The notes beneath the pieces were generated by a model. That model was not told where the DNA came from and searched no databases. It was given only the letters and a program-made list of their open reading frames with translations. From assembly GCA_903821905.1 (NCBI GenBank), contig CAIJMQ010000018.1, positions 1-37,305 of the forward strand: DNA of 37,305 bases. The letters run 5' to 3'. Below, one piece after another: positions 9,426 through 37,270 of this stretch. The translations under genes were made by a program, and so were the position numbers. This DNA comes from an uncultured bacterium (lineage in GTDB: Bacteria; CAIJMQ01). The stretch's first letter is position 1, and the number at the start of each line of letters is the position of its first letter.

Positions 9426-9433
9426 TAAAATAT

Positions 9434-9538: not shown

Positions 9539-9554
9539 AAATGTTTTAGATTAT

Positions 9555-10283: not shown

Positions 10284-12661
10284 TAAAGCTCGACAACTAC
10301 TTCATTATGTTTCTTGCAGTTTTCAACCAACAGGAGATTACCCTTAACATCTTTGCCATTTAGGCTTAATTTCTTTACGCCTTTGCCCTTTGAACCGTTA
10401 TTTATCTTGACATTAAAATCCATTCCGCGGAATTTGCGCGTTATATGAATTTGTTTCCACTTTGACGGTAAACAGGGGTCAATTAATAAACCTTTATAAT
10501 CCGGTCTAATGCCTAAAATATATTGAGTGGCTGCATAATAAGACCAGGAAACCGTACCGCTAAGCCAAGGTATACGACCGGCACCAAAACGCCTACTGGG
10601 TTTGGCATGAGTCCATTGGCAGTGGACATACGGTTCAACCTGTCGAATCTCTGCTTTATCGTTAAAAGCCGATGGCATATAAGCACGATAATACTCATAA
10701 GCCCTATCATTATGTCCGAGCATCGTTTCGGCTATAACAGCCCAGCCTTGAGTATGATTAAAAATAGAACCATTTTCCTTTGTACCGGCTGGGAAAATAA
10801 CCCCGCCGTAAATATCCGTATTCTTCCTGAATGGCGGGGCCAATAACATCACTCCGTATTCAGAAAACAAGCGTTTATATACACTGTCCATTGCGGTTTT
10901 TGCCTGTTGTGACGTAGCAATTCCGCTGAGAATAGCCCAAGATTGTGTTTCAAGGAAAATCGAGCCCTCGGATTCGGATTTACTTCCGACTATACGACCA
11001 TCTTCACGCAATGCTCTTACAAACCATTCTCCGTCCCAAGTGTACTTTTGAATATTTTCATCAAGTTTCTTGAGATTATCTTTAGCCCAAGAAACTTCAT
11101 CGGGTTTATTTAGCATTTCTGCAACTTCGGCATATACGACAAAAGCATAATGCAGCTGAAACGCTACAAATACGGACTCCATCTCTACGCCGCGGCTCAA
11201 ACAATCATTCCAGTCCGCCTGAAGTGCATTAGGTAACCCATGAGAACCACTATGGTTTAGATTGAATTCTATCGCTCGGCGTAAATGTCCAAGGATAGTA
11301 TCCTCACCATTATCTGCATAAGGTAAAACCTTCTCGTAGAAAGATGTATCACCTGTTTCTTTTACATAAGTCGGCACAGCATTGAATAACCAAAGACAAT
11401 CGTCAGACCTATACTGGTCAGGGGTTTTTTCTTTACCGGGATGATGTTCAAATGGCTTAACAATTGAAATTGCTCCGCCATTAGAACATTGCCCTGTAAT
11501 CATCAACTCAAGCCGTTGGCGAGCTTCGTCAGGAATTAATGACAAAGCTCCAATCATATCTTGCACAGTATCACGATAGCCCAATCCGTCACGTTCTCCT
11601 GTATAAACCAGTGAAGCAGTACGAGACCAAGCATAAGTAATCAAACAGTTATATGCATTCCAGACATTAACCATACTATCAAAATCTTTATCGGGTGTTT
11701 CCACATTAAGCACATTAAGAAGACCATGCCATTTGTTCTTCACATTCTCAAATGCTTCGTGTACCTTATCCATTGAACTTAGTTCAGAGAGTGCTTTCTT
11801 TCCGTCATATGCAGCACTGCCTATTCCCATCACTACGGAAAATTCTTTACTTTGCCCCGGCGCAAGTTCAATATCTATCTGTAATGTTCCGCAACCATTA
11901 TCACCATAAGCGCATGAACCCATGCATTTGCCTTTTTCAACCACAATCGGATTAGAATAACTGCGATAAGGTCCCAAGAATATATCTCTGTCGGTATCAA
12001 AACCTGAAGGTTTTGCGCCAACAAGCCCCAAAAATAAGTATTTATCAATTACACGTGATTTGGGGTCAGATGGATTACCGGCATAATTAGGATGCACAAT
12101 ATAACTAATCATACCTTCGGTCATGCCACAGTCTATAATATGCTGAGAATATTGCTGGTTGAACACATCTTGGAAAATCGACCATTCGCTTGCAAACTCT
12201 ACAAAAGTAAAGATACTCAACTTGCGAGTTTTTTTAGATTCATTAGTAAGTTTTAAAACCCAACATTCATACAATTTATCCAGCGGAACAAAATAAGTAG
12301 ATTCAGAATTTATTTCGTTATAATTTGATTCGATAATAGTATAAGCTGTGCCGTGTCGGCAGGTGGTTTTATACTTATCCAACGGTTTACCTGTGGGCTG
12401 CCAACTTGAAGACCAGTAATCGCCGGATTCTTTATCTCGGATGTAAAAATATCTGCCAGGTTGGTCCATCGGAATGTTATTGAAGATTATGCGCGTAAAT
12501 CTACCGCGAGCTGCGGAACGCCAGAAACTATAACCACCGGCATTGTTTGTAATAATTGCGCCATACTCCGTAGAGCCCAAATAATTACTCCACGAACGAG
12601 GTGTGTTAGGTTTTGTGATTACATATTCTTTATTCTTGTCATCAAAATGTCCGAATTGCAT
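10280..12661 (-). CDS. GH94 glycoside phosphorylase (chitobiose/cellobiose phosphorylase-like)
   Basis: TPRSWSNYLG..NNAGGYSF, DGLGYRDTVQD, RSDDCLWL, catalytic ADWND, KENGSIFNH, WLSGT. Confidence 0.92.
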   Translation of the reverse strand: MQFGHFDDKNKEYVITKPNTPRSWSNYLGSTEYGAIITNNAGGYSFWRSAARGRFTRIIFNNIPMDQPGRYFYIRDKESGDYWSSSWQPTGKPLDKYKTTCRHGTAYTIIESNYNEINSESTYFVPLDKLYECWVLKLTNESKKTRKLSIFTFVEFASEWSIFQDVFNQQYSQHIIDCGMTEGMISYIVHPNYAGNPSDPKSRVIDKYLFLGLVGAKPSGFDTDRDIFLGPYRSYSNPIVVEKGKCMGSCAYGDNGCGTLQIDIELAPGQSKEFSVVMGIGSAAYDGKKALSELSSMDKVHEAFENVKNKWHGLLNVLNVETPDKDFDSMVNVWNAYNCLITYAWSRTASLVYTGERDGLGYRDTVQDMIGALSLIPDEARQRLELMITGQCSNGGAISIVKPFEHHPGKEKTPDQYRSDDCLWLFNAVPTYVKETGDTSFYEKVLPYADNGEDTILGHLRRAIEFNLNHSGSHGLPNALQADWNDCLSRGVEMESVFVAFQLHYAFVVYAEVAEMLNKPDEVSWAKDNLKKLDENIQKYTWDGEWFVRALREDGRIVGSKSESEGSIFLETQSWAILSGIATSQQAKTAMDSVYKRLFSEYGVMLLAPPFRKNTDIYGGVIFPAGTKENGSIFNHTQGWAVIAETMLGHNDRAYEYYRAYMPSAFNDKAEIRQVEPYVHCQWTHAKPSRRFGAGRIPWLSGTVSWSYYAATQYILGIRPDYKGLLIDPCLPSKWKQIHITRKFRGMDFNVKINNGSKGKGVKKLSLNGKDVKGNLLLVENCKKHNEVVVELY

Positions 12662-12723
12662 GGGGATATTATATCAGAATTTTTATTCTGTGCTTATTTT
12701 TAATATAATACTTAAATCAAACC

Positions 12724-14121
12724 ATGAAAATTAAACTACTCGGTGCAGCCGGAGATGTAACTGGTTCAAGGTTCCTACTGGAAAGTGATGAATCTAAGGT
12801 TTTAATAGATTGCGGTTTATATCAGGGGAGAGAATCACGTGCGCACAACTGGGAAAAATTTCCAGTAGACCCTTCAAGTATAGATAACATAATTATCACG
12901 CATGCACACCTGGACCACTGCGGATATTTGCCAAAGCTGGTAAAAGAAGGATTCAATGGTAAAATATTCTGTACTCCTCCAACTGCAGAGATTGCGCAAA
13001 TTTCCCTTTTAGATTCTGCAAAATTACAAGAAGAGGATGCAGAATATAAAAAATTTAGACACGAACGGGAAGGGAAAAAGGGGCCACATCCTGAGATTCC
13101 ACTTTATACGGTCGAAGATGCGGAAAAGGTTTTCCCTTTATTTGAAACCGTGCCCTATAAAAATGAAATTCAAATTACTCCTGATATAAGAGCAACTCTT
13201 TATGACGCCGGGCACGTGCTTGGTTCATCAATGGTAGAGCTAATATTCAATAATAACGGTAAAGAAAATAAAATCATCTTCTCAGGCGATATAGGCAGAC
13301 AAGGAAACCCTATTCTTTGTGACCCGACTACTTTCCAGGAAGCCGATTATGTTTTTATGGAAACAACCTATGGTAATAGACTTCACGAAGACGGAAAGCC
13401 ATCTGTAGAAAAGTTTCAGAGAATAATAATAGATACTAAAAATAGAGGCGGTAATATCGTTATACCAACATTTGCCATCGAGAGGACACAGGACCTTCTC
13501 TTTTATTTAAGTCGTCTGTTAAGAGATAAAAAAATACCCCCCCTTAGGGTCTTTGTCGATAGTCCAATGGCTATAAATGTTACCGAGGTTTTCAAAAATT
13601 ATACTGATTACTTTGACGAAGAAACACGAAATCTTATTAAAAGCGGGAAGTCCCCGTTTGATTTTCCGTCACTAAAAACAACAAGGTTAAGCTCCGAGTC
13701 AAAAGAAATCAACGATGTAAAGGGAACTTCTATTATTATGGCCGGCTCCGGTATGTGTACGGGAGGTAGAATAAAACATCATCTTGTAAAAAATATTACA
13801 AGACCAGAAAGCACTATACTGTTTGTGGGTTACCAAGCGCAAGAAACTTTGGGAAGAGAAATACTCGAGAGGCCTCAGTCTGTTAGAATCTTGGGTAATG
13901 TATATTCCATCCGAGCAAAAATTGAAAAAATAAACGGATTCTCCGCTCATGCCGATAGAGATGAGCTGCTTAGATGGGTTTTGAGTTTCAAGGAAGCTCC
14001 CAAGAAAATATTTCTTGTCCACGGCGAAAAAGAGGTCGCAGAGAGCTTCGCTTCACTTTTGAGAGAAAAGATAAAAAGCGAAATCATAGCTCCGGGATAT
14101 CCCCAAGAATATACTCTCTAA
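12724..14121 (+). CDS. MBL-fold metallo-hydrolase, beta-CASP ribonuclease family
   Basis: VTGS, DCG, THAHLDHCG, AGHVLGS, FSGDIG, ETTYG, GSGMCTGGRI, FSAHAD, VHGE. Confidence 0.93.
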   Translation: MKIKLLGAAGDVTGSRFLLESDESKVLIDCGLYQGRESRAHNWEKFPVDPSSIDNIIITHAHLDHCGYLPKLVKEGFNGKIFCTPPTAEIAQISLLDSAKLQEEDAEYKKFRHEREGKKGPHPEIPLYTVEDAEKVFPLFETVPYKNEIQITPDIRATLYDAGHVLGSSMVELIFNNNGKENKIIFSGDIGRQGNPILCDPTTFQEADYVFMETTYGNRLHEDGKPSVEKFQRIIIDTKNRGGNIVIPTFAIERTQDLLFYLSRLLRDKKIPPLRVFVDSPMAINVTEVFKNYTDYFDEETRNLIKSGKSPFDFPSLKTTRLSSESKEINDVKGTSIIMAGSGMCTGGRIKHHLVKNITRPESTILFVGYQAQETLGREILERPQSVRILGNVYSIRAKIEKINGFSAHADRDELLRWVLSFKEAPKKIFLVHGEKEVAESFASLLREKIKSEIIAPGYPQEYTL

Positions 14122-18159: not shown

Positions 18160-18219
18160 ATGTATTGTTCATCAGAATCCTACCCAAGAAGTTCCCAAAT
18201 ATACCCCCCAAAAAAATGA
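18160..18219 (+). CDS. Putative 19-aa leader peptide (MYCSSESYPRSSQIYPPKK), or a frameshifted N-terminus of the DGC
   Basis: AAAGGAGA RBS before ATG 18160; its TGA overlaps the DGC ATG (ATGA) after a C6A7 run. Confidence 0.45.
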   Translation: MYCSSESYPRSSQIYPPKK

Positions 18220-21191
18220 TAGATAAAAGTAAAACAAAAAAGCAACTTTTGAGTGAAATCAAGAAGTTAAGCAGACAGCTTGGCGAGCTGACAAAATCCG
18301 GAAGAGTATGCACATTACAGGAAAAACAATGCAGGGAATTAATACGAAAAGGGAAAGACGTCCTATTTACACTTGATCCGGAAGGCAACGTTACCTCTAT
18401 AAATGCAATAGCAAAGAAAATAGCTGGCTATAAACAAGAAGAGTTAATAGGTAAAAATTTTAGAACGTTAGTTACCGAACAAACTAAAAAGAAAACAGAA
18501 GAAGATTTCAGCCGTATGCTTAAAAAAGGGGAAATCACAACAGAAATTACATTACTTGGGAAAAAGGGTAAACCCTGTTTTTTCGATTGCAATGTCAAAA
18601 CTATTAAAAAAGGCAAGAAAATTACCGAGATAAAAGGGGTTGTTCGAGACATTACAAAATATAAACAAATTGAAGACGATTTGCAGGAAACAAAAAGACA
18701 GATAGAATTTGTGTTAGGAAGTACAAAAACAGGTTTGGACATCATAGATTCTAATTTCAATATTAGATATATAGATCCTGAATGGCAGAAAGTTTATGGT
18801 AACCATAAGGGGAAAAAATGTTACAAATATTTTATGGGGCGTAAAAGAGTTTGTCCCAACTGCAGTATAACTAAAGCATTTGCAACAAAAAAACCTGTTG
18901 TCAGCGAAGAGATTCTTATTAAGGAAAACAACCGCCCCATACAAGTCACCACGATGCCTTTCCAAGCCAAAGACGGTGAATGGCTCGTTGCAGAGGTTAA
19001 TGTAGATATAACCGAGCGTAAACGATTAGAAAACATTCTACAGGAATCCGAGGGGAAATTTAGGGGTGTAGTGGATAATATAGCCATCGGAGTATCTCTT
19101 ATTAGCCCAAACATGGAAATACTAGCATTAAATAAAAAGATGAAAGAGTGGTTCCCCAATATCGATGCCAATAAAAAACTTGTCTGTTATAAAGCATTCA
19201 ATAATCCCCCAAGCGAAACAATATGTTCTTACTGCCCGACTTATAAAACTTTAAATGACGGACAGATACATGAATCAATAACAGAGACACCTGCAGGCGA
19301 TAAGATTATCAATTACAGAGTTGTTTCCTCGCCTGTCATTAATAACAACGGTCAAATTGTAGCAGCCATAGAGATGGTAGAAGACATTACCAAGCGCAAA
19401 CAATCGGAAGAGGCTCTGCGTATAAGCGAGAAAAAGATTCGCGCCATTTTTGACCAGACTTTTCAGTTTATAGGTCTGATGACAGTGGATGGTAAGCTTA
19501 TTGAGGCAAACAGAACGGCTATGCACTTTGCAGGAATTAATGAATCGGATTGTTTGGGTAAACCTTTTTGGGATACGCCCTGGTGGACTCATTCAAAAGA
19601 GATGCAGAATAAGCTACGCGAAGCTGTAAAAAGAGCCTTGAGTGGTGAAACCGTACTCTTCGAAGCAACCCATCTTGCCGCCGATAAAAGTCTTCACTAC
19701 ATAGATTTTTCGCTTAAGCCAATTAAGGATGAGGACGGAAAGGTAGTTTTTCTTATTCCTGAAGGGCACGATATCACTGAGCGCAAACAATCGGAAGAAC
19801 AATTAAAAAAATACCAGACAAATCTGGAGGAATTAGTTGAAGAACGCACAAAGGAATTACAAAAGGTAAATAAACAAATCCGACAAGATGTAATTTCTTG
19901 CAATTTAATGAGCCAAGAAATAAGTGAAAGCGAAAAACGATACAGAGAACTTTGGGATAATGCGCCCGTTGCTTACCATACTTTAGACATGAAAGGTATT
20001 ATCACAAATGTAAACAAGACTGAAGTGAAATTGCTCGGTTATAAAACTGAAGAAATGATAGGTAAATCCATTTTTGATTTTATACTGCCTGAACAAAAAG
20101 AAGAAGCTGAAAAAAGATTCCAGCAGAAATTGTCCGGCAAACGCATCTCAAGGGCTGAAAGTAGAATATACATTAGGAAAGATGGTTCTAAAATTTATGT
20201 GTCTATTGATGATGCATTTGAATACGATAGTAATGGAAAAATTGTGGGGATTAAAACAACAATGGTGGATTTTACTGAAAACAAGAAGATGGAAGAAGCT
20301 TTGCGGGAATCGGAATCGCAGTACCGTACAACGATTAATTCCATGAGAGATGCAATCAATGTTGTTGATGCAGATTTACGGATTATCCTATGCAATAACG
20401 CCCTCCAAGAATGGCTGGGTGCCCTTGGCTTTAAAACGGATTTAATGGGGAAAAAATTATTTGATGTACTTCCTTTCCTGTCTGATAATGTCCGTAACGA
20501 ATATAATCAAGTATTTGAATCCGGGGAAATACTAGTAACAGAGGAACGCCTCAATTTGGGAGGGAAAGAATGGGTTACTGAAATACGCAAGATACCGATT
20601 TGGGAGGCTGGTAAAGTAATCAGGATACTTACCATAATTAGAGATGTAACTGAGAGAAGAAAAACAGAAGAAACCATCAGATACTTGGCTTATTATGATA
20701 CTTTAACTAATTTGCCAAACAGAACACTTTTTAATAATCGGCTGGCTTTGGAGTTGAGCCGCGCACAAAGAAACAAACAAAAAGTATCTGTTATGATGCT
20801 AGACCTTGATAAATTCAAGAATGTTAACGACAGCCTGGGACACAGTTTCGGTGACCAATTATTGCAGGATGTTGCTAAAAGATTGTCAGAGACTGTGCGT
20901 TCAAGCGATACTGTATCGCGTATGGGTGGAGACGAATTTATTTTATTATTACCAGAAATCACTAGTGGAGAAAATATCACTATTATTGCCGAGAAAATAT
21001 TAGAAACGATTAGAAAACCATTTTTAATTAATAATCAAAAGCTTCAAATTACTACAAGCATTGGAATCAGCATCTATCCCGTTGATGGGGAAGACGCAGA
21101 AACCCTGATTAAAAACGCTGACATAGCAATGTATCAAGCCAAACAAACCGGTCGAGACCGATACTCCCAACATAAAACTGATTCAAAATAA
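18216..21191 (+). CDS. Cytoplasmic multi-PAS diguanylate cyclase (about 6 PAS/PAC + GGDEF)
   Basis: Repeated DIT/DFT/DVT-E-K PAC ends; YYDTLTNLPNR, DLDKFKNVNDSLGH, RSSD I-site, GGDEF; no EAL. Start placed at ATG 18216 (ORF track extends it to TTG 18165). Confidence 0.93.
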   Translation: MIDKSKTKKQLLSEIKKLSRQLGELTKSGRVCTLQEKQCRELIRKGKDVLFTLDPEGNVTSINAIAKKIAGYKQEELIGKNFRTLVTEQTKKKTEEDFSRMLKKGEITTEITLLGKKGKPCFFDCNVKTIKKGKKITEIKGVVRDITKYKQIEDDLQETKRQIEFVLGSTKTGLDIIDSNFNIRYIDPEWQKVYGNHKGKKCYKYFMGRKRVCPNCSITKAFATKKPVVSEEILIKENNRPIQVTTMPFQAKDGEWLVAEVNVDITERKRLENILQESEGKFRGVVDNIAIGVSLISPNMEILALNKKMKEWFPNIDANKKLVCYKAFNNPPSETICSYCPTYKTLNDGQIHESITETPAGDKIINYRVVSSPVINNNGQIVAAIEMVEDITKRKQSEEALRISEKKIRAIFDQTFQFIGLMTVDGKLIEANRTAMHFAGINESDCLGKPFWDTPWWTHSKEMQNKLREAVKRALSGETVLFEATHLAADKSLHYIDFSLKPIKDEDGKVVFLIPEGHDITERKQSEEQLKKYQTNLEELVEERTKELQKVNKQIRQDVISCNLMSQEISESEKRYRELWDNAPVAYHTLDMKGIITNVNKTEVKLLGYKTEEMIGKSIFDFILPEQKEEAEKRFQQKLSGKRISRAESRIYIRKDGSKIYVSIDDAFEYDSNGKIVGIKTTMVDFTENKKMEEALRESESQYRTTINSMRDAINVVDADLRIILCNNALQEWLGALGFKTDLMGKKLFDVLPFLSDNVRNEYNQVFESGEILVTEERLNLGGKEWVTEIRKIPIWEAGKVIRILTIIRDVTERRKTEETIRYLAYYDTLTNLPNRTLFNNRLALELSRAQRNKQKVSVMMLDLDKFKNVNDSLGHSFGDQLLQDVAKRLSETVRSSDTVSRMGGDEFILLLPEITSGENITIIAEKILETIRKPFLINNQKLQITTSIGISIYPVDGEDAETLIKNADIAMYQAKQTGRDRYSQHKTDSK

Positions 21192-22615: not shown

Positions 22616-24994
22616 CTAACTTCTTAACTTTAACCCCAATTCTTCTTCCAATTTCCTGATAATATTATTCTGCAATTGATTAACTTCATCGTCAGTTAAT
22701 GTTTTTTTGTCTGAACGGAAACACAGGGAATAGGACATGCTCTTATGACCTTCCGGGACCTGCTTGCCTTTATAGTAATCGAAAAGTTTTATTCTCTGGA
22801 TAAGCCCGTCCCCTTCCTTGATCATGGTTTCCTCAATCTTATTTGAAGAAACTGGGTCTGGCACTATAAAAGAAACATCTCTTATAATAGGAGGATATTT
22901 GGGTGCTGATTTAATTTTTCTCCTAAGTTGAATAGATGGCATAAGTAATTCTAAATCAATCTCGGCAATATAAGTTTTTTCTTTGAGCGAGAATTTGTCC
23001 ATTAGAACAGAATTAGCTTCACCTATCATCCCTACATTAATATTATCTTTCAAGAGTGAGAATGTGTAGGTTTCACTAAAAATGGAGTGTTTCTCTTTTT
23101 TGTAAGAAAGTTCTATGCCCAATTCCCCGAAAAGTGTTTCTATTATTCCTTTTAAAACATAAAATGAAGCTTTTTGCTCGGGATTAATCCAGTTTGGTTC
23201 CTGCCAATCCCCAGTTATAAAAATCCCTATATGTAAATCTTCTTTCGGAGATTTGCTCTTTCCATATCCGTATATACTGCGAAGTTCAAAAATTCTTATA
23301 TTTTTCTCACCTCTCGAGATGTTCCCTTCCGACACCTGAAGCAGCGAAGGAACTAAAGAATATCTTAGGAACTCAAATTCTTCCGAGATAGGATTATCTA
23401 TTTTGATAGTCTCATCCGTAATGTTCATTAAAGATTTCTTTATTAAATCGGCGCTTATAAAAGAATAGTTTACTACCTCATTAAGGGAAAGCCGGTTCAA
23501 TATGCTTCGGCACTTTTTGATAACTTTTCCTCTATTATCTTCTCTAAGAGAAGGCATTCTACCCAAAGGAAGAGAAGTGGGTATAAGGTCATAATTATTT
23601 ATCCGCGCGATTTCTTCTATCAGGTCAATCTCTTCTTTAACATCATTTCTAAAGCTGGGGACTTTCACATGTAAACGATTACCATTTTTTTTCGTATCAA
23701 AACCTAATCTTTGAAGTATTTTGTTATAAGAAGCAACCTCTACTCCAAGTACTCTTTTAATTTCAGAAGGATTAAAGGAAATTGTCTTTTGAGTAACTTT
23801 TCCCTTTACATCAGCCGTTCCTGATATAATCTCCCCGCTTGCCAATTCCTGCATAAGATAGCAGGCTCGATTGGCTGCAAATACAGTTCCTTCCGGGTCT
23901 ACCCCTCTTTCAAAACGATAAGAGCTCTCTGTTGCCAGATTCAATGATTTTGACGTTTTTCTTATTGATTGCGGAGCAAAATTAGCGCTCTCAAGGAGAA
24001 TATTTTTTGTGTTCTGGCTAACTCCAGCTTCTTCGCCACCCATTACTCCGGCAAGAGCAATAGGTTTTTTACTATCCGCTATAACAAGGTCTTGGGAAGA
24101 CAAAGTTTTTTGAGCACCGTCCAGACAAAGAATTTTTTCGTTGTCTTTTGCCTTTCTGATTATAATTTGTCTATCTGAAATCTTATCGTAATCAAAAGCG
24201 TGTAGCGGTTGACCCGTTTCAAACATAACATAATTTGTTATATCCACTATGTTGTTTATCGGGCGGACACCTGCAAGAATAAGTCTTTTTTTCATCCATT
24301 GCGGAGAATCTTTAATTTGTATGCCCGTAATAATTCTTGCCGTATATCTCGGGCATAAGTTTGCATCTTTTACCTCAACATTTATTTTGTCTTTTGTCTT
24401 TTCTTTTGTTTCTTTGATTTTAATTGGCGGTAGTTTTAATTCTTGAGAAGTTAATGCTGCAATCTCTCTGGCTACACCGAGTATGGACAAACAATCGCCT
24501 CTGTTAGGAGTTATTTTAATTTCAACGACAGCATCTTTTAACCCCATTACATCCGATAATTCTTTTCCTACTTCGCACTTGTCAGGTAGAATCCATATTC
24601 CCTCGGAACTATCACTAAGCCCCAATTCAACTTCAGAACATATCATTCCCTCCGACTCGATTCCTCTAATTGCACGCTTTTCTATCTTTAATCCAGTGGG
24701 AAGGGTGGTGCCGGGTAGAACCACTGGGACCTTTATCCCTTCCTTTACATTAGAAGCACCGCAGATAATATGTTTGGGAGAACCTTCGCTAACATCTACC
24801 ATACATATTGTCAGCTTGTCCGCAGAAGGATGTTTTTTAACGGAAAGGACTTTACCTATCTTTATGCCTTGAAGGAGAGTGTCTTCTTCAATTCTTTCTA
24901 CTTCAATACCCAACTGTAATAATTTTTCAGCAAGTTCTTGGGTAGAAAAAGGGATATCTACGAACTCTTTAAGCCAATTGATTGGAACTTTCAT
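22616..24994 (-). CDS. pheT: Phenylalanine--tRNA ligase beta subunit
   Basis: WLKEFV, HPSADKL, ESEGMICS, ITPNRGDCLS, GQPLHAFD, SSYRFERGVD, DLIEEIAR, C-terminal FDX-ACB domain. Confidence 0.98.
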   Translation of the reverse strand: MKVPINWLKEFVDIPFSTQELAEKLLQLGIEVERIEEDTLLQGIKIGKVLSVKKHPSADKLTICMVDVSEGSPKHIICGASNVKEGIKVPVVLPGTTLPTGLKIEKRAIRGIESEGMICSEVELGLSDSSEGIWILPDKCEVGKELSDVMGLKDAVVEIKITPNRGDCLSILGVAREIAALTSQELKLPPIKIKETKEKTKDKINVEVKDANLCPRYTARIITGIQIKDSPQWMKKRLILAGVRPINNIVDITNYVMFETGQPLHAFDYDKISDRQIIIRKAKDNEKILCLDGAQKTLSSQDLVIADSKKPIALAGVMGGEEAGVSQNTKNILLESANFAPQSIRKTSKSLNLATESSYRFERGVDPEGTVFAANRACYLMQELASGEIISGTADVKGKVTQKTISFNPSEIKRVLGVEVASYNKILQRLGFDTKKNGNRLHVKVPSFRNDVKEEIDLIEEIARINNYDLIPTSLPLGRMPSLREDNRGKVIKKCRSILNRLSLNEVVNYSFISADLIKKSLMNITDETIKIDNPISEEFEFLRYSLVPSLLQVSEGNISRGEKNIRIFELRSIYGYGKSKSPKEDLHIGIFITGDWQEPNWINPEQKASFYVLKGIIETLFGELGIELSYKKEKHSIFSETYTFSLLKDNINVGMIGEANSVLMDKFSLKEKTYIAEIDLELLMPSIQLRRKIKSAPKYPPIIRDVSFIVPDPVSSNKIEETMIKEGDGLIQRIKLFDYYKGKQVPEGHKSMSYSLCFRSDKKTLTDDEVNQLQNNIIRKLEEELGLKLRS

Positions 24995-25632
24995 TTTTGT
25001 GTACTCATTCTATTTTTTACTCTTTCTAGCAATTTAGTAGCTACTTCTTCCAAAGTTTTTCCACTTTTTATAGAATTACATTCAAAACAACAAGTAACTA
25101 AGTTTTCTTTTGAATTATCCCCGCCTTTTGATATTGGTATCTTATGGTCTAATGTGGCATTATTCTGGGTTACTTTTTCACCACAATATTGACACCTATA
25201 ATCATCTCTTTCAAAGATAAGTTTCCTGTTTGCAGGGTTTTCGAAATAATCTTCCGATAATTCCTCTGTTGGAGTTTTATTTTTTTCTTGTTTTAATTCC
25301 AAGCTTTCTTCTATTTCTGAAGGGAGTTTCACCCTATAGATTTTACCTAAATGATGAACTCCCAGTATCTCTATATGTCCCTTTTTTATCAACGCCCTAA
25401 TATTTTCACTAACTGCGTTAGGACTTAATCCCTTCTTAAGGGAATTGCTCTTTGCGGATTTACTAACTTCTTTAGCAATAGTCCTGTCACCAACTTGAAA
25501 TGAATTTTTACCTGTTTCAAAAAAAGACCATCTTAGAAGATAATTATAAATTGACTGTTCAATAGGGGTTTGTAAAGGCGACAAATAATCAATAACCTCT
25601 TTGAAAATTTTTATTAATTCGGGTTTATCCAT
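24991..25632 (-). CDS. HNH endonuclease (McrA-like) with a putative N-terminal winged helix-turn-helix
   Basis: RDDYRCQYCG..TLDHKIPISKGG....NLVTCCFECNSIK; N-terminal IYNYLL..RTIAKE..LSPNAVSENIRALIKKGHIE..IYRV. Confidence 0.85.
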   Translation of the reverse strand: MDKPELIKIFKEVIDYLSPLQTPIEQSIYNYLLRWSFFETGKNSFQVGDRTIAKEVSKSAKSNSLKKGLSPNAVSENIRALIKKGHIEILGVHHLGKIYRVKLPSEIEESLELKQEKNKTPTEELSEDYFENPANRKLIFERDDYRCQYCGEKVTQNNATLDHKIPISKGGDNSKENLVTCCFECNSIKSGKTLEEVATKLLERVKNRMSTQK

Positions 25633-30233: not shown

Positions 30234-31661
30234 CTAATCTCTAAATCGTCTTGGTCTATTATTTCCCGACCGACCCGAGGCGGGCTGGGATGATTGATTG
30301 CGGTTATGGGAGAAGCGTCCGGGACGTGAACCACCCGAGTGCGGGCCACCTGAACGTGAGCCGCCTGAGTACGAACCACCACCCGAGTGCGAACGGCTTG
30401 GGCGCGGACCACTACCTGAGCGCGAACCACCAAAGCGTGAACCACCTGGACGCGAACGGTTATGCGAATATGATGAACCATGGTGCCTATCCCCCTCGGG
30501 GGAAAATTTATGAGCGGCGCTTGCCGGAGGAAGGTCTGCCGGGAGAGGTGAAATTGGGAGATTTTTCCTTATCAGTCTCTCAATACGGTGAACATCACTT
30601 CTCTGGTCTGAAGTAACAAACGAAATGGCATGCCCCTTAGCACCTGCACGGGCCGTTCGTCCGATACGGTGCACATAATCTTCACAGTTATCTGGTATGT
30701 CATAGTTGACCACCAATTCAATGCCTATTACATCAATACCCCGCGAGGCAACATCGGTAGCTACTAATATGCGATATTTCCCTGATTTAAACCCTTGAAG
30801 CGCCTCTCGGCGTTGAAAAAGTGAGCGGTTGGAATGAATCTCGGCTGCTCTATGGCCAATATTGCAAAGCACTCTTGTAAGTTTGCTGGCTCCGTGTTTT
30901 GTCCTGGTGAAGATAAGTGTGGGGCCGTGATATTGTTTAAGAAGTTTTTCCAGCAGACGGGATTTCAAATCTTTTGAAATAACAAAAATTTCCTGTGTTA
31001 CCTGGTCAACTGTTGTCCCGGTTGGAGCTACCTCTATTCTAATCGGCAATTTCATATATTTCGTAGCCATAGTCATAATCGCGTGAGGTATTGTCGCAGA
31101 GAAAAGCATGGTTTGCCGATTATGCGGAAGCACGTTAAAAATTGTTCTAATTTGCGGTTCAAATCCCATGTCCAACATTCGGTCAGCTTCATCAAGAACA
31201 ACAATGTGGACATTTTCAAGCCGCAGTGTTTTTTGCTCTAAATGGTCGTTGAGCCGTCCCGGTGTTGCTATAATAATATGCGGGTGCCGGTATATTGCTT
31301 GTATCTGAGGACGTATTGCCGTACCGCCAATAAGCACTGCAGTTCGAATCCCCATATCCACACCAACCTGGTGCAGCGCTTCGTCAACCTGGATAGCGAG
31401 TTCACGTGTGGGAACTATAACCAAGCCCTGCCCTTTGGTTTGAAGTAACTTCTGAATCATCGGAATACCAAAAGCAATCGTTTTACCGGTGCCCGTCTGT
31501 GCAATACCTACCACATCTTTACCCTGTATTGCGACCGGCATGGCTTGGCGTTGGATCGGGGTCGGTTCTTTAAATTTCAATTTTTCTAGTGTTTTCAAAA
31601 GAACGGGCGTGATACCCAACCCAGAAAACCCAGTATTTTGATGTTGACTATTCGGACTCAT
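30234..31661 (-). CDS. DEAD-box RNA helicase (RhlE-like) with a Gly/Ser/Arg-rich tail
   Basis: PTPIQ, AQTGTGKT, PTRELA, TPGRL, DEAD, SAT, RGID, HRIGRTAR; GGGAG RBS supports ATG 31661. Confidence 0.95.
   Translation of the reverse strand: MSPNSQHQNTGFSGLGITPVLLKTLEKLKFKEPTPIQRQAMPVAIQGKDVVGIAQTGTGKTIAFGIPMIQKLLQTKGQGLVIVPTRELAIQVDEALHQVGVDMGIRTAVLIGGTAIRPQIQAIYRHPHIIIATPGRLNDHLEQKTLRLENVHIVVLDEADRMLDMGFEPQIRTIFNVLPHNRQTMLFSATIPHAIMTMATKYMKLPIRIEVAPTGTTVDQVTQEIFVISKDLKSRLLEKLLKQYHGPTLIFTRTKHGASKLTRVLCNIGHRAAEIHSNRSLFQRREALQGFKSGKYRILVATDVASRGIDVIGIELVVNYDIPDNCEDYVHRIGRTARAGAKGHAISFVTSDQRSDVHRIERLIRKNLPISPLPADLPPASAAHKFSPEGDRHHGSSYSHNRSRPGGSRFGGSRSGSGPRPSRSHSGGGSYSGGSRSGGPHSGGSRPGRFSHNRNQSSQPASGRSGNNRPRRFRD
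30328..30460. repeat. Degenerate 15-bp tandem repeat encoding (S/F)GGSR pentapeptides
   Basis: GAACCACCCGAGTGC / GGGCCACCTGAACGT / GAGCCGCCTGAGTAC / GAACCACCA... units within the helicase C-terminus. Confidence 0.75.
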
Positions 31662-31720
31662 AAATTTTTTTAACTCCCAACTTTGGCATAACGTCACATG
31701 CTATGCTAAAACTTACATTA

Positions 31721-31938: not shown

Positions 31939-33165
31939 CTATTCAGAAACTACCTGGTTTCTTCCACCTGTTTTTGCTTTATATAATCTTTCATCTGCGT
32001 TCTTTATCAATTCACCTCGCGTTTTGCTATCCGCCGGTAATGAAGAAACGCCGAAACTAACAGTAAGCTTGCCGTTTGGTTGTTTTTCTTCGTTATGGAA
32101 ATGCGTATTTTCTATTTCTTCTTTTAATTTCCGGGCAACAACTACTGCATCTTTCTTTTCCGTGTGGGGAAGAATGATAACAAATTCCTCTCCTCCATAT
32201 CTTGCCACAACATCTCTGCCTTTGGTATTTTTTTTGAATATGTCTGCGACTTTCCAGAGAACTTTATCGCCTGCAACGTGTCCGTTAGTATCATTATAGT
32301 GTTTGAAATAATCTACGTCTGCCATAATCAGCGAAATTGACTGTTCGCCTTTAATTCCCATTTCAGTAAACTCTTCCAGCTTTTCCTGGAAATGGCGATG
32401 ATTATAGATATTAGTGAGTCCATCAGTTATTGAGAGAAATTTAGTCTTTTCAAAAAGCTGTGCATTCTCTACCAGCAAAGATGCTTGGGAAGCGATTGAC
32501 ACCAACAATTCTAACTCCTGTGACAGAAAATCACGGGATTCTTTTGTCAGAACACCTACCATCCCAAAACTTCTCTCTCTTCTTTTTAGGGGGACAACCA
32601 AAATAGAAAAGTAACCCGCTTCTGACAGTTTTTTATATTTGGGGAATGAACTTAAATCGTTGATAAGGTGAGATTGTCCTTTTTGTATAACCTCTTCCCT
32701 TAAATCATCATCTAAAGTAATATTTTTCTCGCCCTCGTATATTTTCACAAAATATTTTTGTTCTTCATCGGAATAGAGTTCAAGAAATAGTATATTTACT
32801 TTTAATAGGTCCTTTATGGCTAAAAGCATCCTTTTAAGCACGGTGTGTAGGTCTTGTTCGGCCGTGAATGCGCTCATTAAATCACGAAGCGTAGAAAGAA
32901 GATGACTTCCTTCGGATTGGTCCGATTGAGTAAGCTCAAGTGTAGTGCTCATTCTCTGGTTTTCCCTCAAAAGATTAGAACTTATTTTATGGAGAGACCA
33001 AAAAGATATGAGTAATAGTATAAATGCAAAAGTATATAGAACAAGCACTGCGGGAATATTTTTGGGGAAAAGAGGAATAATGATTTTGCTGCCAAACCAT
33101 AGAGTAACTAATACTAAACAGGCAACTGATGCAAGAATGTTTGCAACAATACGACTTTTTATCAC
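31939..33165 (-). CDS. Membrane-anchored GAF-GGDEF diguanylate cyclase
   Basis: Two N-terminal TM helices; GAF (SILVVPL..F.SQELELL..ENAQLF); ITDGLT, DVDYFKHYNDTNGH, RYGGEEF. Confidence 0.93.
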   Translation of the reverse strand: MIKSRIVANILASVACLVLVTLWFGSKIIIPLFPKNIPAVLVLYTFAFILLLISFWSLHKISSNLLRENQRMSTTLELTQSDQSEGSHLLSTLRDLMSAFTAEQDLHTVLKRMLLAIKDLLKVNILFLELYSDEEQKYFVKIYEGEKNITLDDDLREEVIQKGQSHLINDLSSFPKYKKLSEAGYFSILVVPLKRRERSFGMVGVLTKESRDFLSQELELLVSIASQASLLVENAQLFEKTKFLSITDGLTNIYNHRHFQEKLEEFTEMGIKGEQSISLIMADVDYFKHYNDTNGHVAGDKVLWKVADIFKKNTKGRDVVARYGGEEFVIILPHTEKKDAVVVARKLKEEIENTHFHNEEKQPNGKLTVSFGVSSLPADSKTRGELIKNADERLYKAKTGGRNQVVSE

Positions 33166-33167
33166 GC

Positions 33168-33899
33168 TTATTGTCCCTCGACCGTTCCAACTTCAAGCTC
33201 TATGTCGGCTCTACGTTCTACTCTTTCTATTTTGCCGTCTCTAATCCAGAATATTCTATCCGAGACATCTATCATTTTTAGGTCGTGAGTAGCGGATATT
33301 ATTGTGACTTCCTTTTCTCTGTTTAGAGTTTTGAGAAGTTGTATAATTTCTTTACCTGTATTCAAATCTAAGTTTCCCGTGGGTTCATCTGCCAACACAA
33401 TAGCTGGGTCATTTGCGAGTGCTCGGGCAATAGCTACTCTCTGTTGCTGTCCGCCGGAAAGCTGGAAAGGTTTATGGTGAACTCTGTCGCCCAGACCCAC
33501 ACGGGAAAGTAATGCGACTCCTTTTTCTCTTGAGTCATCTGCACTCATTCCGGCAAATACCATCGGAAGAGTCACATTTTCTAAGGCGCTCATTACGGGT
33601 ATCAAGTTAAATGTCTGGAAAATATATCCTATTTTTCTACACCTCAGCCATGCCAATTCATAGGCATCAAGTTGAGCTACGTCCACCTCATCAATATAAA
33701 CTCTACCTTCAGATGGTTTATCTAAACCGCCTATCATATTAAAAAGGGTGGTCTTTCCGGAACCTGACGGCCCCATTATAGATATGTATTCGCCTCTTTT
33801 AATTTCCATATCTATACCCTTTAGAGCTGGCACCGAGAGCTCACCTAAACGGAAAACTTTCGTTACTCCTCTTGTTCTGACTACATTCTCTGCTGGCAT
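33168..33899 (-). CDS. ABC transporter ATP-binding protein (LolD/MacB/FtsE-type)
   Basis: [45 protein letters not shown]. Confidence 0.96.
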
Positions 33900-33909
33900 C
33901 TTATCTTCT

Positions 33910-34554
33910 TTATTCGTCCTTTCTCATAGCATCAGCAGGGACCATTTTCGCTGCTCTGTAAGCAGGATATATGGCACCAACAATTGTAAGTATAACACCA
34001 AAAAAAATTGCAATCATACCAGTTTTAATAATACTTAACCACGGGAATACCTTCCAGATTATACCGCCATATTTTATAAGCGATATCAAAATCATAGACA
34101 AATTTCCTATAATTACTCCTGCCACTGCTCCTATTATACCTTGGAATGCTGATTCTATTAAGAAAAGTTTGACTATGAAGCTATCCAACGCACCAAGACA
34201 TTTCATTGTCCCTATCTCTCTATATCTTTCGGTGACAGACATAAGCATTGCATTTGTAATTCCTACGACACATACCAGAAGAGATAGAGACATTAACCAG
34301 ATTTGTTGGGCTTTTATTCCCACACCGCCTGAAAGTCTTGCTTGAAGATATTCCGGGCCTTTTGTTAAAAGCGCTCCATTAATTGCGATTGATGAAAAAA
34401 TAGACGTCAAAAACGCTATTGCAAAGCTTATTCCCATAATTGTAATTATGGAACGCCCAAGCCTGATTTGGATGGACTGGTAACTCATCTGGATGGCCTT
34501 AAACATGGGTAAAACTATCTGTTTTTCTACTTTCATTTGACCGGTCTCAGCCAT
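33910..34554 (-). CDS. FtsX-like ABC permease, 4 TM, lacking a large periplasmic domain
   Basis: RSIITIMGI, ITNAMLMSVTERYREIGTMKCLGA, FLIES, YPAYRAAKMVPADAMR. Confidence 0.9.
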   Translation of the reverse strand: MAETGQMKVEKQIVLPMFKAIQMSYQSIQIRLGRSIITIMGISFAIAFLTSIFSSIAINGALLTKGPEYLQARLSGGVGIKAQQIWLMSLSLLVCVVGITNAMLMSVTERYREIGTMKCLGALDSFIVKLFLIESAFQGIIGAVAGVIIGNLSMILISLIKYGGIIWKVFPWLSIIKTGMIAIFFGVILTIVGAIYPAYRAAKMVPADAMRKDE

Positions 34555-34930
34555 TATTATTTACTCCATTTCTAGAAATTACCAAGCCTATTATCCTTCT
34601 TTGAGCTAATTTTTTCAAATATTCCAACGTAGAAACTTCCACTTCTTTGCGGTTTAATTGAAATTTTCTCTCTAACTCTATGATTATAGTTTCCACGGAA
34701 TTTTTCCCGTCACATAGTCCCCACATATATGCCCCAAGTTCATCAAGAGTTATAATTTTTTCACTTGGGATAAAAACAATTTTACTAAAAAAATCAATCA
34801 TTTTGCTTTTATCGCGCGGTATATAAAGAATTGCTCCACCTTTTTCGTTTTTCTCCCATCTAATAGAAGCATTCTTGACAGGTTTGGCAAGAAACATTTC
34901 TTCTCTTGTAAGTTTTCGCTTATTTATCAT
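34547..34930 (-). CDS. PqqD-family protein (RiPP recognition element-like)
   Basis: TLDELGAYMWGLCDGKNSVETII..L..KF.....EVEVSTLEYLKKLAQRRII matches the PqqD/RRE winged-helix pattern, with an N-terminal extension. Confidence 0.85.
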   Translation of the reverse strand: MINKRKLTREEMFLAKPVKNASIRWEKNEKGGAILYIPRDKSKMIDFFSKIVFIPSEKIITLDELGAYMWGLCDGKNSVETIIIELERKFQLNRKEVEVSTLEYLKKLAQRRIIGLVISRNGVNNNG

Positions 34931-35883
34931 TTATGGCAAATCACGTCTTTGGACAAATTTTCTAATATAGGATTTTCACCTACAGAAGTAGAAAGAAGGA
35001 CAAAAATCCTGTTAGTTTCCTTACAATACCATACTTTTCCTTCTTTAAGAATATTTTTTCGTGTAAATATTGGAATCCCCCTTTTTTGTATCGCACTAAA
35101 ATTAAATTCAGTATGGTTATTTTTCTCTTCTAACTTTACGCCTGAAAGGTAATTATTATAAATCGCATAAGCTACCGAGAACCATTCTGTTAATTTTTTT
35201 TCTTTCAGAAGCATATTCCCCAAAGCCCATCTTTCAATATCCAAACTGTCCTTTCCTTTATTAAAGCTTAACTTTAAATATCCGGATTTTAAAGAATAAT
35301 CAGCCAACTTGTAATCCTTGGGAGTATGGAAAACGAGGTCGTAAAGTCCCCAGGTCATTTTATCATCAGGGTGGTCTTCCAGAGAACTGTATATTTTACT
35401 GACTATGTCTTTTATATCCTCTTCTTTCTTAGAGTATACCCTCATCAATAAAACTCTTCCACAGGCTTTACAGTACCACGCTATACAAAAAGCTCTGAAA
35501 TTAGATTCTAGAATAAAAAATTCACCATTTCTTTCTTTGGTAAATATTTTTTTTGCTGGTGGGGGTAGTTTTCTTTGAACAGAAAATGGCAGTTTTTTTC
35601 TTTTTGTCTCTTTTTCTATGGTATCTATATTATTGGAAATGATTTTTTCTAAATAAAAGGAAGAGGCAGGTGTATGCCAATAAAGCTCTACTCGGACCAT
35701 AAAACCATCATCCAGAAAAACTTCTCCGTTGGAGTAATCTTTTGATAGTTTTGAAATATTCCATTCTTTGGGATGCAGAAAAGATATGCCTTGCCAGCCA
35801 AAAATGGCAAATTCACCCACGGTGCTTTTGTTAGTTGGACGCTCGGTAGAGGTTTCTATGCTGATGTCTCTATTTTCTTGCAT
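34927..35883 (-). CDS. Hypothetical protein with an internal two-fold duplication and Cys/His motifs
   Basis: Long ORF overlapping the PqqD gene by ATGA; WYCKACGR and WYCKETNR in equivalent positions of two halves. Start uncertain (ATG 35883 or GTG 35820). Confidence 0.75.
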   Translation of the reverse strand: MQENRDISIETSTERPTNKSTVGEFAIFGWQGISFLHPKEWNISKLSKDYSNGEVFLDDGFMVRVELYWHTPASSFYLEKIISNNIDTIEKETKRKKLPFSVQRKLPPPAKKIFTKERNGEFFILESNFRAFCIAWYCKACGRVLLMRVYSKKEEDIKDIVSKIYSSLEDHPDDKMTWGLYDLVFHTPKDYKLADYSLKSGYLKLSFNKGKDSLDIERWALGNMLLKEKKLTEWFSVAYAIYNNYLSGVKLEEKNNHTEFNFSAIQKRGIPIFTRKNILKEGKVWYCKETNRIFVLLSTSVGENPILENLSKDVICHK

Positions 35884-36779
35884 ATCAGATTGGCTAATTG
35901 TAGTGACTTCAAGCCATCTGTTCCGCTAACTTTCGGTGCCCTGTTATTTTTTATGCAGTCAAGAAAATCTCTGATTTCTTCTTTTAAGGGTTCTTTCTTC
36001 TCTATAGGAACAGACGCCTTTTTAACAGTATTGTTTTCTCCCTTTTCAAGTATATCTATGGTTTGATTAACATAGTCAAGGGAGATATAAGAAGTTGGCT
36101 GAAATACTCTAATTTTTCTCAAAACCTTTTCGCTAACCCTCGATGTTGTTATATTTGCTACACAACCTGAAGAAAAATAGATTCTTGCATTAACAATATC
36201 ACTTGTTTTGGAAAGCACTTTTACACCAAAAGCATCTACCGATTTTATCGGGGAATTAACGAGATTCAAAATTATATCCAAATCGTGAATCATTACTTCC
36301 ATTACTACATTTGTTTCTGTGCCTCTGCCGGGATAAGGTCCTACCCTATGGCATTCGATGAAACGGGGATTGGAAACTATTTCGTACAGTTTTACAACTG
36401 CCGGATTATATCTTTCTACGTGTCCAACCTGAAGAACTAATTTATTGTTTTCTGCCTTCTCAATGAGTTTTGAAACTTCTATCTCGTCTGAAGTAACTAC
36501 TTTTTCAACAAGTACGTTTACACCGTTCATCAAGAAATCTCGAGCTATGGGGTAATGAAATTTAGTGGGGGTAGCTATGCTCACGCCATCTACTTTACCA
36601 ATTAGTTCGTGATAATCTTTATAAGCTTTTGTATTAAACTCCGTAGCTACTTTATCTCTTCGCTCTTTTGAGGCATCACACACTCCTACGAGATTGACAT
36701 CTTCAAAATTAGAATAAACTTTTGCATGCTTTTCTCCCATATAACCTACGCCAATAACAGCGACATGCATTGTTTTCAT
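35856..36779 (-). CDS. Gfo/Idh/MocA oxidoreductase (GnnA-like UDP-GlcNAc 3-dehydrogenase candidate)
   Basis: GVGYMG Rossmann fold, LVEK, QVGHVERYNPA, MIHDLD, SRVS; follows lpxI. Confidence 0.85.
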   Translation of the reverse strand: MKTMHVAVIGVGYMGEKHAKVYSNFEDVNLVGVCDASKERRDKVATEFNTKAYKDYHELIGKVDGVSIATPTKFHYPIARDFLMNGVNVLVEKVVTSDEIEVSKLIEKAENNKLVLQVGHVERYNPAVVKLYEIVSNPRFIECHRVGPYPGRGTETNVVMEVMIHDLDIILNLVNSPIKSVDAFGVKVLSKTSDIVNARIYFSSGCVANITTSRVSEKVLRKIRVFQPTSYISLDYVNQTIDILEKGENNTVKKASVPIEKKEPLKEEIRDFLDCIKNNRAPKVSGTDGLKSLQLANLICKKIETSA

Positions 36780-36811: not shown

Positions 36812-37168
36812 TTAAATCCCTATTAGTGCAATATTGTGGGTATTACATTTTTTTATGAGGGATTTTTTTTCAAGGACTATGGTCTTTCCGGCTTCAAAAG
36901 CAATAGCAGCAATACCCACCTGAGATGCAACTTTTAAGGTTTCTAAGCCTACAACAGGTGGATGATCGAACCTTGAATCCTGGTTGTATCTTGCCACTTT
37001 TACCACAACTGCTCCTTTACCTGCCAATTTACCTCCTCGCAGTATAGTGGGATCTGTACCTTCTATGGATTCTACCGCGAAAATCATTCCTTCCTTTACA
37101 ACTACCGTATGACCTATATCAAGATGAGCAATATTCTTTGCAATCTCCCATCCTAAGTTTATATCAAT
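36812..37168 (-). pseudogene. lpxI: UDP-2,3-diacylglucosamine diphosphatase LpxI, C-terminal part only (5' truncated)
   Basis: The frame extends upstream of the ORF-track start: IDINLGWEIAKNIAHLDIGHTVVVKEGMIFAVESIEGTD..QDSRFD.P.VG..T. In-frame TGA at 37187-37189, no N-terminal domain. Confidence 0.8.
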
Positions 37169-37180
37169 GTTTGGGAGAGT

Positions 37181-37270
37181 ATGTCGTCAGTAAAAAAGAA
37201 GCGTCGCGCCAAAATCGCTCGTCATAAACGCAAAAAACGTCGACGTCGCGATCGTCACAAGAAAAAATAG
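37181..37270 (+). CDS. 29-aa highly basic peptide, bS22/AURKAIP1-COX24 (mS38)-like small ribosomal protein
   Basis: Read manually: MSSVKKKRRAKIARHKRKKRRRRDRHKKK with GGGAGAG RBS; the M-x-S-V-x-K-K-R-R-x-K start resembles bS22. Confidence 0.75.
   Translation: MSSVKKKRRAKIARHKRKKRRRRDRHKKK

Follow-up and report, generated by a model that had tools for sequence, protein, structure and literature searches.

We examined a window of DNA comprising the entire 37,305-base contig C18 from the genome of an uncultured bacterium (G000; 1.30 Mb, 121 contigs, 84% complete), and within it a cassette of four tightly packed minus-strand genes at positions 33168-35883. The open reading frames (ORFs), read from the sequence, encode a 318-amino-acid (aa) protein, designated U318, a stand-alone PqqD-like protein, a 214-aa FtsX-only permease, designated FtsXmin, and an ATP-binding cassette (ABC) ATPase. 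We propose, with a probability of roughly 0.55, that these genes encode one half, the one facing the cytoplasm, of a type VII (MacB/FtsX-type) ABC machine with several components. This machine would occur widely among non-model diderm phyla and, to the extent that searches could tell, is undescribed. The outward-facing parts would be a 1552-aa FtsX protein, designated giant FtsX, and a protein resembling the OPT family, both encoded on contig C105 of the same genome. Every building block is of a known kind: FtsX permease, MacB-type ATPase, RiPP recognition element (RRE; RiPP, ribosomally synthesized and post-translationally modified peptide), PsbP-like fold and OPT-like protein. No description of their combination was found in the full-text literature, with subscription journals and supplements outside the coverage.

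Gene order and co-occurrence

When 8000 candidates with lengths between 117 and 375 aa were scored, 7368 matched FtsXmin, the best matches being 50-69% identical and from many candidate phyla. Scanning species-representative genomes for FtsXmin yielded 589 relatives, and the locus counts given below rest on the best 80 of these. The ATPase gene lay directly 3' of FtsXmin at 73 of the 80 loci. The identity of this core was 45-65% across a dozen phyla, and it was kept in genomes of 0.9-2 Mb. None of the genomes checked had more than one FtsXmin; in a second phylum, the gene was single-copy in 47 of the 51 genomes that were at least 80% complete. Conservation across phyla, presence as a single copy and retention in genomes of about 1 Mb together mark a function in the envelope that is important and has not been studied.

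Co-occurrence was evaluated in the genomes of 50 loci, chosen from the best 80 for diversity. Giant FtsX and the OPT-like protein were each present in all 50 of these FtsXmin-bearing genomes and a DUF6785 protein in 49. The original prediction for this DNA had treated the four genes of the cassette as a unit that should recur in other genomes. This holds in part: the gene order was kept in three class-level relatives and the run U318-PqqD-FtsXmin-ATPase recurs in other phyla, but the PqqD type was found in only 38 of the 50 genomes and U318 in only 31.

Gene order was then read at the loci themselves. Among the 69 with enough upstream DNA, PqqD was located 5' of FtsXmin in 19 and U318 in 11; the giant gene lay within the FtsXmin locus in only 7 of 61. 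Where the genes are contiguous, they follow the order giant FtsX, OPT-like (~660 aa), PqqD, FtsXmin, ATPase (L020, L022, L036 and L039) or giant FtsX, OPT-like, U318, PqqD, FtsXmin, ATPase (L031 and L040). In these arrays, giant FtsX is 1041-1507 aa long and neighbouring genes are spaced by -4 to 250 nt. Of the 31 U318-bearing genomes, 28 have U318 and PqqD next to each other, and the pair lies directly 3' of the OPT-like gene in 18 genomes, directly 5' of FtsXmin-ATPase in 12, and in both positions in 2. The pair thus "floats" between two membrane modules and is absent from many carriers, which points to an accessory cytoplasmic bridge or regulator.

Nine species genomes from the window's phylum were compared (G000-G008). 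Of these, G001-G004 represent a sister genus (81-96% complete), G005-G007 are the class-level relatives of G000, and G008 is 64% complete. All three class-level relatives kept the order LpxI-Gfo-U318-PqqD-FtsX-ATPase, with a GGDEF gene next in G005 and G007; the G006 contig ends inside the ATPase gene. Compared with the window proteins, identities were 85-86% for the ATPase, 56-60% for FtsX, 40-46% for PqqD and 30-35% for U318. U318, FtsXmin, giant FtsX and the OPT-like protein all occurred in G000 and in these three genomes. All four were absent from the four sister-genus genomes and from G008, in which PqqD was not searched for and the FtsX matches were LolC/E-like proteins of 376-423 aa only.

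The permease and its ATPase

The original prediction described four overlapping or abutting genes, and all of its coordinates and junctions were correct (Table 1). Specifically, U318 and PqqD overlap by 4 bp (ATGA), PqqD and FtsXmin overlap by 8 bp, and FtsXmin and the ATPase gene are separated by 10 nt.

MacB/FtsX permeases normally act through a large periplasmic domain. FtsXmin matched PF02687 with 64.4 bits, the match covering residues 88-205 only. As predicted, it appears to be a minimal four-helix permease: four hydrophobic stretches were apparent, with approximately 25 residues between transmembrane helices TM1 and TM2, the topology being an estimate from hydropathy only. The large periplasmic domain between TM1 and TM2 is absent, and the spacing is approximately 25 residues in all 27 aligned members. 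This cross-phylum alignment had a mean column identity of 66% and contained the motif NAMLMSVTERYREIGTMKCLGALD.

The ATPase matched ABC_tran with 119.5 bits. Among NCBIfam models it scored 232.8 bits with LolD, 224.6 with YbbA, 220.1 with MacB and 201 with FtsE, all below the equivalog cut-offs, and 209.6 bits with the darobactin export ATPase model. Neither familiar assignment held. For LolCDE, FtsXmin scored 48.2 bits with lolCE against a cut-off of 362.45, and the ATPase fell short of the LolD cut-off of 307.75. For FtsEX, FtsXmin scored 31.2 bits with FtsX_Gneg against a cut-off of 255 and lacks an ectodomain, and the FtsE cut-off is 264.85.

Giant FtsX, OPT-like and DUF6785 proteins

Without a periplasmic domain, FtsXmin would have nothing to act with on its own. 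The original prediction placed a partner permease elsewhere in the genome, and a candidate was indeed present: in G000, the giant FtsX gene on C105 is followed directly by a gene for a 661-aa polytopic OPT-like protein, and in other genomes the two are contiguous with the cassette. Giant FtsX has an N-terminal anchor, an ectodomain of approximately 800 aa with a PA/M28-like domain, and four further helices. The predicted helices lie at 5-23, 822-971 and 1277-1380, the M28 match at 249-317 and the FtsX domain at 1279-1389, and the periplasmic region at 972-1276 gave a weak match to MacB_PCD (E 0.001). It contains a single FtsX unit: using hhalign, residues 1273-1397 matched residues 84-212 of FtsXmin with a probability of 97.5. 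A second FtsX unit in the middle helix cluster was considered and rejected (hhalign probability 0.7).

No ATPase gene adjoins the giant gene in G000 or lies within 1.5 kb upstream of it in G005-G007, and the other three MacB/LolD-type ATPases of G000 are each beside or fused to their own permease. Giant FtsX is our candidate partner for FtsXmin because it has one FtsX unit and a periplasmic core domain, because it has no ATPase gene of its own nearby, and because the other ATPases are already paired.

Peptidases of family M28 carry a metal-binding and catalytic motif, His...Asp...Glu-Glu. The M28-like match of giant FtsX is partial (profile positions 1-65 of 193), and this part of the protein aligns to the aminopeptidase YwaD (3.5e-10) and to Nicalin. 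In the G000 protein, the one sequence inspected, HYDS and AEELG of YwaD are replaced by YYDS and SGHFM. The domain is probably not catalytic, judging from these substitutions.

Giant FtsX also matched the PADLOC model 'CARF_m8--CARF_LolE_TM' (3.5e-57, best stretch residues 1250-1529), so the family may already have been catalogued as CARF-like. PADLOC models assigned no defence family to U318, PqqD or the OPT-like protein, and the matches of the ATPase and FtsX were generic.

Many homologues of the 661-aa protein, 50-64% identical to it, carry PF03169 and are named 'OPT/YSL family transporter' or 'peptide transporter' at NCBI. No solved relative of the protein was found by sequence. In relatives, the giant gene has two further neighbours on its 5' side, one encoding a small TPR protein and the other a DUF6785/DUF6784 protein. 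None of 14 model genomes used as controls contained DUF6785; among carriers, the number of matches per genome ranged from 1 to at least 24. The genomes with at least 24 DUF6785/DUF6784 matches are large and labelled Poribacteria, Latescibacterota or Gemmatimonadota (G036, G037, G039, G041, G042, G044, G046, G049, G057 and others). Twelve DUF6785 paralogues (loci L136-L145) lie among sulfatase, BNR, FG-GAP/ASPIC, GDSL lipase and Gfo genes. At L137 and L140, the paralogues adjoin homologous proteins of 357-359 aa that are 42% identical to each other and have signal-peptide-like N-termini; these neighbours were tried as relatives of U318 and rejected (best E 1.1).

U318 and the PqqD-type RRE

U318 matched no family above cut-off in Pfam or NCBIfam; a weak match to DUF3781 (E 0.04) was below cut-off and was dismissed. 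A k-mer search had yielded one homologue only, but an exhaustive HMMER search revealed a large family of 609 cluster representatives at E ≤ 1e-3. The named relatives that were looked up were all 'hypothetical protein', as were the nearest 30 of 30 clusters in an Atlas search, none of which carried a Pfam family. Homologues begin near residue 22-25 of U318, so its true start is uncertain.

Structure comparison of an AlphaFold2 model of U318 (predicted local distance difference test score, pLDDT, 90.4) revealed two tandem Mog1/PsbP-like domains, at residues 23-171 and 172-318. The N-terminal domain matched PsbP (2xb3) with a Z score of 14.1 and a root-mean-square deviation (rmsd) of 2.9 over 137 aligned residues, and Mog1 with a Z score of 11.3; the Foldseek probability for PsbP was 1.0. 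The C-terminal domain matched BT_1490 (Z 11.8), Apa (10.4) and Tsi3 (10.1). Across 90 aligned members, four cysteines (C138 in 86, C141 in 80, C287 in 82 and C316 in 83) and three histidines (H171 in 80, H257 in 76 and H317 in 78) are conserved. The protein is thus the tandem-domain Cys/His protein that had been predicted, and these seven residues suggest that it probably binds metal.

The PqqD-like protein matched PF05402 with 44 bits against a cut-off of 23.4 (E 2.8e-11, residues 54-114). Its AlphaFold2 model (pLDDT 87.9) is a winged helix, with a small antiparallel sheet (strands 16-19, 24-27, 33-38 and 57-62) on three helices (64-72, 79-90 and 94-110). The best Foldseek matches were all RREs: TbiB1, PqqD, TruD, TbtB, MadB and lasso B1. 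For TbiB1, the template modelling score was 0.81-0.83 and the rmsd 2.2 Å, with Foldseek E-values of only about 2e-3. A profile built from 16 orthologues independently matched solved RREs by sequence, with E-values of 4.9e-9 for the lasso chaperone 9x90_B, 1.1e-6 for PqqD 3g2b and 2e-6 for TbiB1, in a range to 2.8e-5. The RRE fold postulated for this protein is therefore supported by both structure and sequence. The protein also has a conserved N-terminal extension of approximately 50 residues. No hydrophobic segment was detected in U318 or PqqD by hydropathy, and both are presumably cytoplasmic.

PqqD/RRE domains bind leader peptides for RiPP enzymes. No radical SAM, YcaO, lasso cyclase, peptidase/protease or short precursor ORF was found beside the window cassette. 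The sole radical SAM gene of the window (9555-10283) encodes an activase next to a pyruvate formate-lyase gene, 24 kb away, and the gaps within the cassette, at ≤10 nt, leave no room for a precursor gene. Similarly, no RiPP maturase or precursor was found among the neighbours of 15 FtsXmin loci or 3' of PqqD at L112-L119 and L121, nine of the ten additional loci, where genes for RecD2, flagellin, a methylase and others were located instead; the intergenic gaps of homologous loci are too short for precursor ORFs. The claim that the cassette stands apart from known RiPP maturases and precursors thus extends to the homologous loci examined.

A model of the assembly

From gene content, folds, co-occurrence and gene order, we infer how the proteins might contact each other, in what stoichiometry, and what they might move and in which direction. 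FtsXmin and the LolD/MacB-like ATPase, single-copy and very conserved, would constitute the motor module. An ATPase dimer would dock on an asymmetric FtsX pair formed by FtsXmin, without an ectodomain, and giant FtsX, with one. ATP-driven mechanotransmission would then work the giant ectodomain, gate the OPT-like proteins, or both, with the OPT-like and DUF6785 proteins acting as associated channels. U318 and the RRE would form an accessory cytoplasmic pair bridging the OPT-like/giant and FtsXmin/ATPase modules. The RRE fold suggests that this pair clamps an extended peptide, which might belong to a substrate or be the tail of a partner protein. Peptides or proteins may be the cargo, a guess prompted by the OPT, RRE and PA/M28-like folds, all of which point in that direction. 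The original prediction read the locus as a cytoplasmic RRE acting as a peptide or protein adaptor for a type VII ABC complex. The RRE fold, the co-occurrence, the absence of RiPP genes and a partner encoded elsewhere agree with that reading, which is partly supported overall, the adaptor role of the RRE being putative.

We advance an extended form of this model only tentatively. In it, FtsXmin and the ATPase would be a universal motor shared by envelope transport units of giant FtsX and OPT-like/DUF6785 proteins. Such units would be present in many uncultured diderm phyla, with as many as dozens of paralogues in one genome, and the RRE would be a structural peptide clamp that works with a metal-binding tandem PsbP-like protein outside RiPP biosynthesis. 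The result would be an ABC system of a new architectural class, in which mechanotransmission of the type VII kind is joined to channels of the OPT superfamily, and the RRE fold would gain a new role in the cell.

The machine proposed at the outset would itself be split in a way without precedent among type VII ABC systems, and its partners would be new. The type VII family would thereby gain a fifth functional type, and the machine would provide the first FtsX unit without a periplasmic part to be encoded as its own gene. It would also give a first functional context to DUF6785/DUF6784 and to the unnamed 609-cluster U318 family. Finally, an RRE used outside natural-product biosynthesis would bear on genome mining by tools in which an RRE counts as the marker of a RiPP cluster.

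Comparison with known systems

LolCDE resembles the proposed assembly in having a heteromeric FtsX-type permease pair and a LolD-type ATPase dimer, and FtsXmin and the ATPase score best with Lol models. However, LolC and LolE each have a periplasmic domain of approximately 200 aa where FtsXmin has approximately 25 residues, and the scores are far below cut-offs. G000 has two ordinary LolC/E-like genes (419 and 423 aa), each with its own ATPase. FtsEX also comprises a small FtsX-family permease beside an ATPase and acts by mechanotransmission, not transport. Its FtsX ectodomain binds EnvC, PcsB or RipC, whereas FtsXmin has no ectodomain and coexists with an FtsX-like gene in one genome (G053).

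An asymmetric arrangement of two FtsX units is found in BceAB, in which, according to one article (PMC12646458), the first FtsX unit of BceB has no periplasmic domain. In YbbAP-TesA, the type VII motor is partnered by a protein of hydrolase fold, comparable to the M28-like domain of giant FtsX, and YbbA is among the better matches of the ATPase. In contrast to these ten-helix systems, the two units here would be separate polypeptides of 214 and 1552 aa, the larger of which includes the hydrolase-like domain in an apparently inactive form. The set also comprises OPT-superfamily proteins as well as an RRE and a PsbP-like protein in the cytoplasm.

The PqqD-like protein belongs to the same family as PqqD and lasso B1 proteins and shares their fold, with three helices on a small sheet; TbiB1 and PqqD are its best structural matches. 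It differs in lacking a RiPP enzyme or precursor nearby, in the translational coupling of its gene to the U318 and FtsXmin genes, and in its N-terminal extension. Both halves of U318 share the fold of PsbP, DcrB, LpqN, the Eag/SciW chaperones and TplEi (Z 9.8-14.1), and TplEi also has two domains. Unlike these proteins, U318 has no signal peptide, is ≤15% identical to them, and carries a conserved CxxC...C...CH set that is not known from any of them. By analogy only, one motor gene pair per genome alongside many paralogous membrane units recalls the energy-coupling factor (ECF) transporters, although the folds are unrelated and sharing in the present case would follow from copy numbers alone.

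Alternative explanations

Several observations weigh against the proposed machine. The 661-aa protein scored 25.1 bits with OPT PF03169, just under the cut-off of 25.8. G000, at 84% completeness, yielded no DUF6785 match, and contig C105 stops 230 bp upstream of the giant gene. In the second phylum, four genomes have no FtsXmin, yet two of these contain fragments of OPT-like genes where contigs end. Two Poribacteria loci (L115 and L116, in G046 and G056) comprise giant FtsX, OPT-like, U318 and PqqD genes followed by an ATPase gene of their own (259-269 aa), with no FtsXmin. The same genomes have a separate FtsXmin-ATPase pair elsewhere, so giant FtsX may work without a neighbouring FtsXmin, for example as a homodimer. 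Large genomes contain many giant FtsX matches and at least 24 DUF6785 matches yet one FtsXmin, an imbalance that fits a shared motor and independence equally. PqqD is absent from 12 of 50 genomes and U318 from 19 of 50, so the core cannot depend on either. Finally, no canonical FtsX was identified among the five FtsX-domain genes of G000, and none was detected in 4 of 5 other carriers using the narrow model TIGR00439, which would be compatible with a division role for FtsXmin and the ATPase.

The last point, the second ATPase in Poribacteria, the invariance of the FtsXmin-ATPase pair and its usual separation from the giant gene would also suit a self-contained minimal ABC system. Here, an FtsXmin homodimer with two ATPases would stand in for FtsEX in division, or would act as a signal transducer feeding the GAF-GGDEF cyclase encoded after the ATPase in the window's phylum and at L020, L036 and L039; giant FtsX and the OPT-like protein would be separate, with U318-PqqD regulating either. 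We consider this unlikely. Giant FtsX and the OPT-like protein accompany FtsXmin in every one of the 50 genomes, have disappeared along with it from five genomes in the window's phylum, and join it in six-gene arrays with gaps of a few nucleotides. Moreover, G053 has both a canonical FtsX-like gene (202.9 bits) and FtsXmin, the FtsE model gives the ATPase a lower score than the LolD, YbbA and MacB models do, and, given the known mechanism of the family, a type VII unit lacking a periplasmic part is left without anything to act on.

We give less credence to peptide uptake, in which the OPT-like and DUF6785 proteins would import peptides or other nutrients, the giant ectodomain would capture periplasmic substrates, FtsXmin and the ATPase would be a shared motor following ECF logic, and U318-PqqD would receive the peptide in the cytoplasm. 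The names and PF03169 matches of the OPT-like homologues, the excess of DUF6785 matches over a single FtsXmin, the sulfatase, lipase and other neighbours of the DUF6785 paralogues (some beside signal-peptide proteins of 357-359 aa), the retention of the system in small genomes and the peptide-binding fold of the RRE are all consistent with uptake. However, transport of substrates across the inner membrane is not a known activity of type VII ABC systems, according to PMC12646458. The M28-like domain of giant FtsX in G000 lacks the catalytic motif, U318 and PqqD are missing from most small-genome carriers, and transport direction is not readable from sequence; this alternative overlaps the proposed machine and differs from it only in cargo and direction. 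A cryptic RiPP pathway appears very improbable. The RRE would present a precursor to an unrecognised enzyme, perhaps U318 as a metalloenzyme whose seven conserved Cys/His could bind a catalytic metal, and the FtsX/ATPase pair would export the product or provide immunity. The RRE fold and family membership do hold, and MacB-type exporters occur in some peptide clusters, as the score with the darobactin model recalls. Nevertheless, no maturase, protease or short precursor ORF was found at the window cassette or the homologous loci examined, Mog1/PsbP is a binding fold and not a known RiPP enzyme fold, and a gene that is single-copy, near-universal in one phylum and conserved across phyla with 50-65% identity is housekeeping-like, not patchy as biosynthetic clusters are.

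Genomic surroundings of the cassette

Table 1. Positions of the cassette genes, their neighbours in the window and the candidate partner on C105.
Feature	Location	Strand	Details
U318	34927..35883	-	318 aa; no Pfam/NCBIfam family; start may be nearer residue 22
Stand-alone PqqD-family RRE	34547..34930	-	127 aa; PF05402
FtsXmin, FtsX/MacB-type permease	33910..34554	-	214 aa; PF02687
LolD/YbbA/MacB-type ABC ATPase	33168..33899	-	243 aa; ABC_tran
Gfo/Idh/MocA oxidoreductase, UDP-GlcNAc 3-dehydrogenase-like	35856..36779	-	upstream of U318, 28-bp overlap
GAF-GGDEF diguanylate cyclase, membrane-anchored	31939..33165	-	starts 2 nt past ATPase stop
LpxI C-terminal-domain frame	36812-37087, open to 37183		upstream of Gfo gene
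Giant FtsX	contig C105 (L111), 8204-12862	-	1552 aa; FtsX domain, M28 match

The cassette follows lipid A-related genes, as had been noted: an LpxI C-terminal-domain frame and a UDP-GlcNAc 3-dehydrogenase-like gene precede it. This lipid A link is specific to the window's lineage, and the Gfo gene is a conserved upstream neighbour only within the window's phylum. Pattern scans for promoters and terminators around the cassette performed no better than on shuffled sequence, so the operon limits rest on gene packing alone. Downstream, a GAF-GGDEF gene begins 2-47 nt past the ATPase in the window's phylum and in three genomes of another lineage (L020, L036 and L039; the loci also include L005 and L016), a position hinting at a link to cyclic di-GMP. 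The second GGDEF gene of the window, at 18165-21191, is PAS-rich.

The LpxI frame at the contig end encodes the C-terminal domain only; the N-terminal domain is absent, and relatives are 262-264 aa long. Its place is taken by a plus-strand ORF of 29 aa at 37181-37270, very basic and, we presume, resembling ribosomal protein bS22, after which the contig ends. The shortened LpxI could represent a truncated gene or an assembly join.

Elsewhere in the window, a ZMP/ZTP riboswitch (pfl motif) was identified at 7045-7139 on the plus strand (59.9 bits versus a gathering score of 39), directly upstream of the pyruvate formate-lyase gene (7194-9425) and its radical-SAM activase. A DEAD-box helicase at 30234-31697 on the minus strand has a Ser/Gly/Arg/Pro-rich tail of approximately 90 residues, and this stretch has the contig's highest G+C content (0.45-0.47 versus ~0.37). 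Finally, a stand-alone HNH endonuclease gene at 24991-25632 on the minus strand lies between pheT (22616-24994), with which it overlaps by 4 bp, and a SufBD-like gene.

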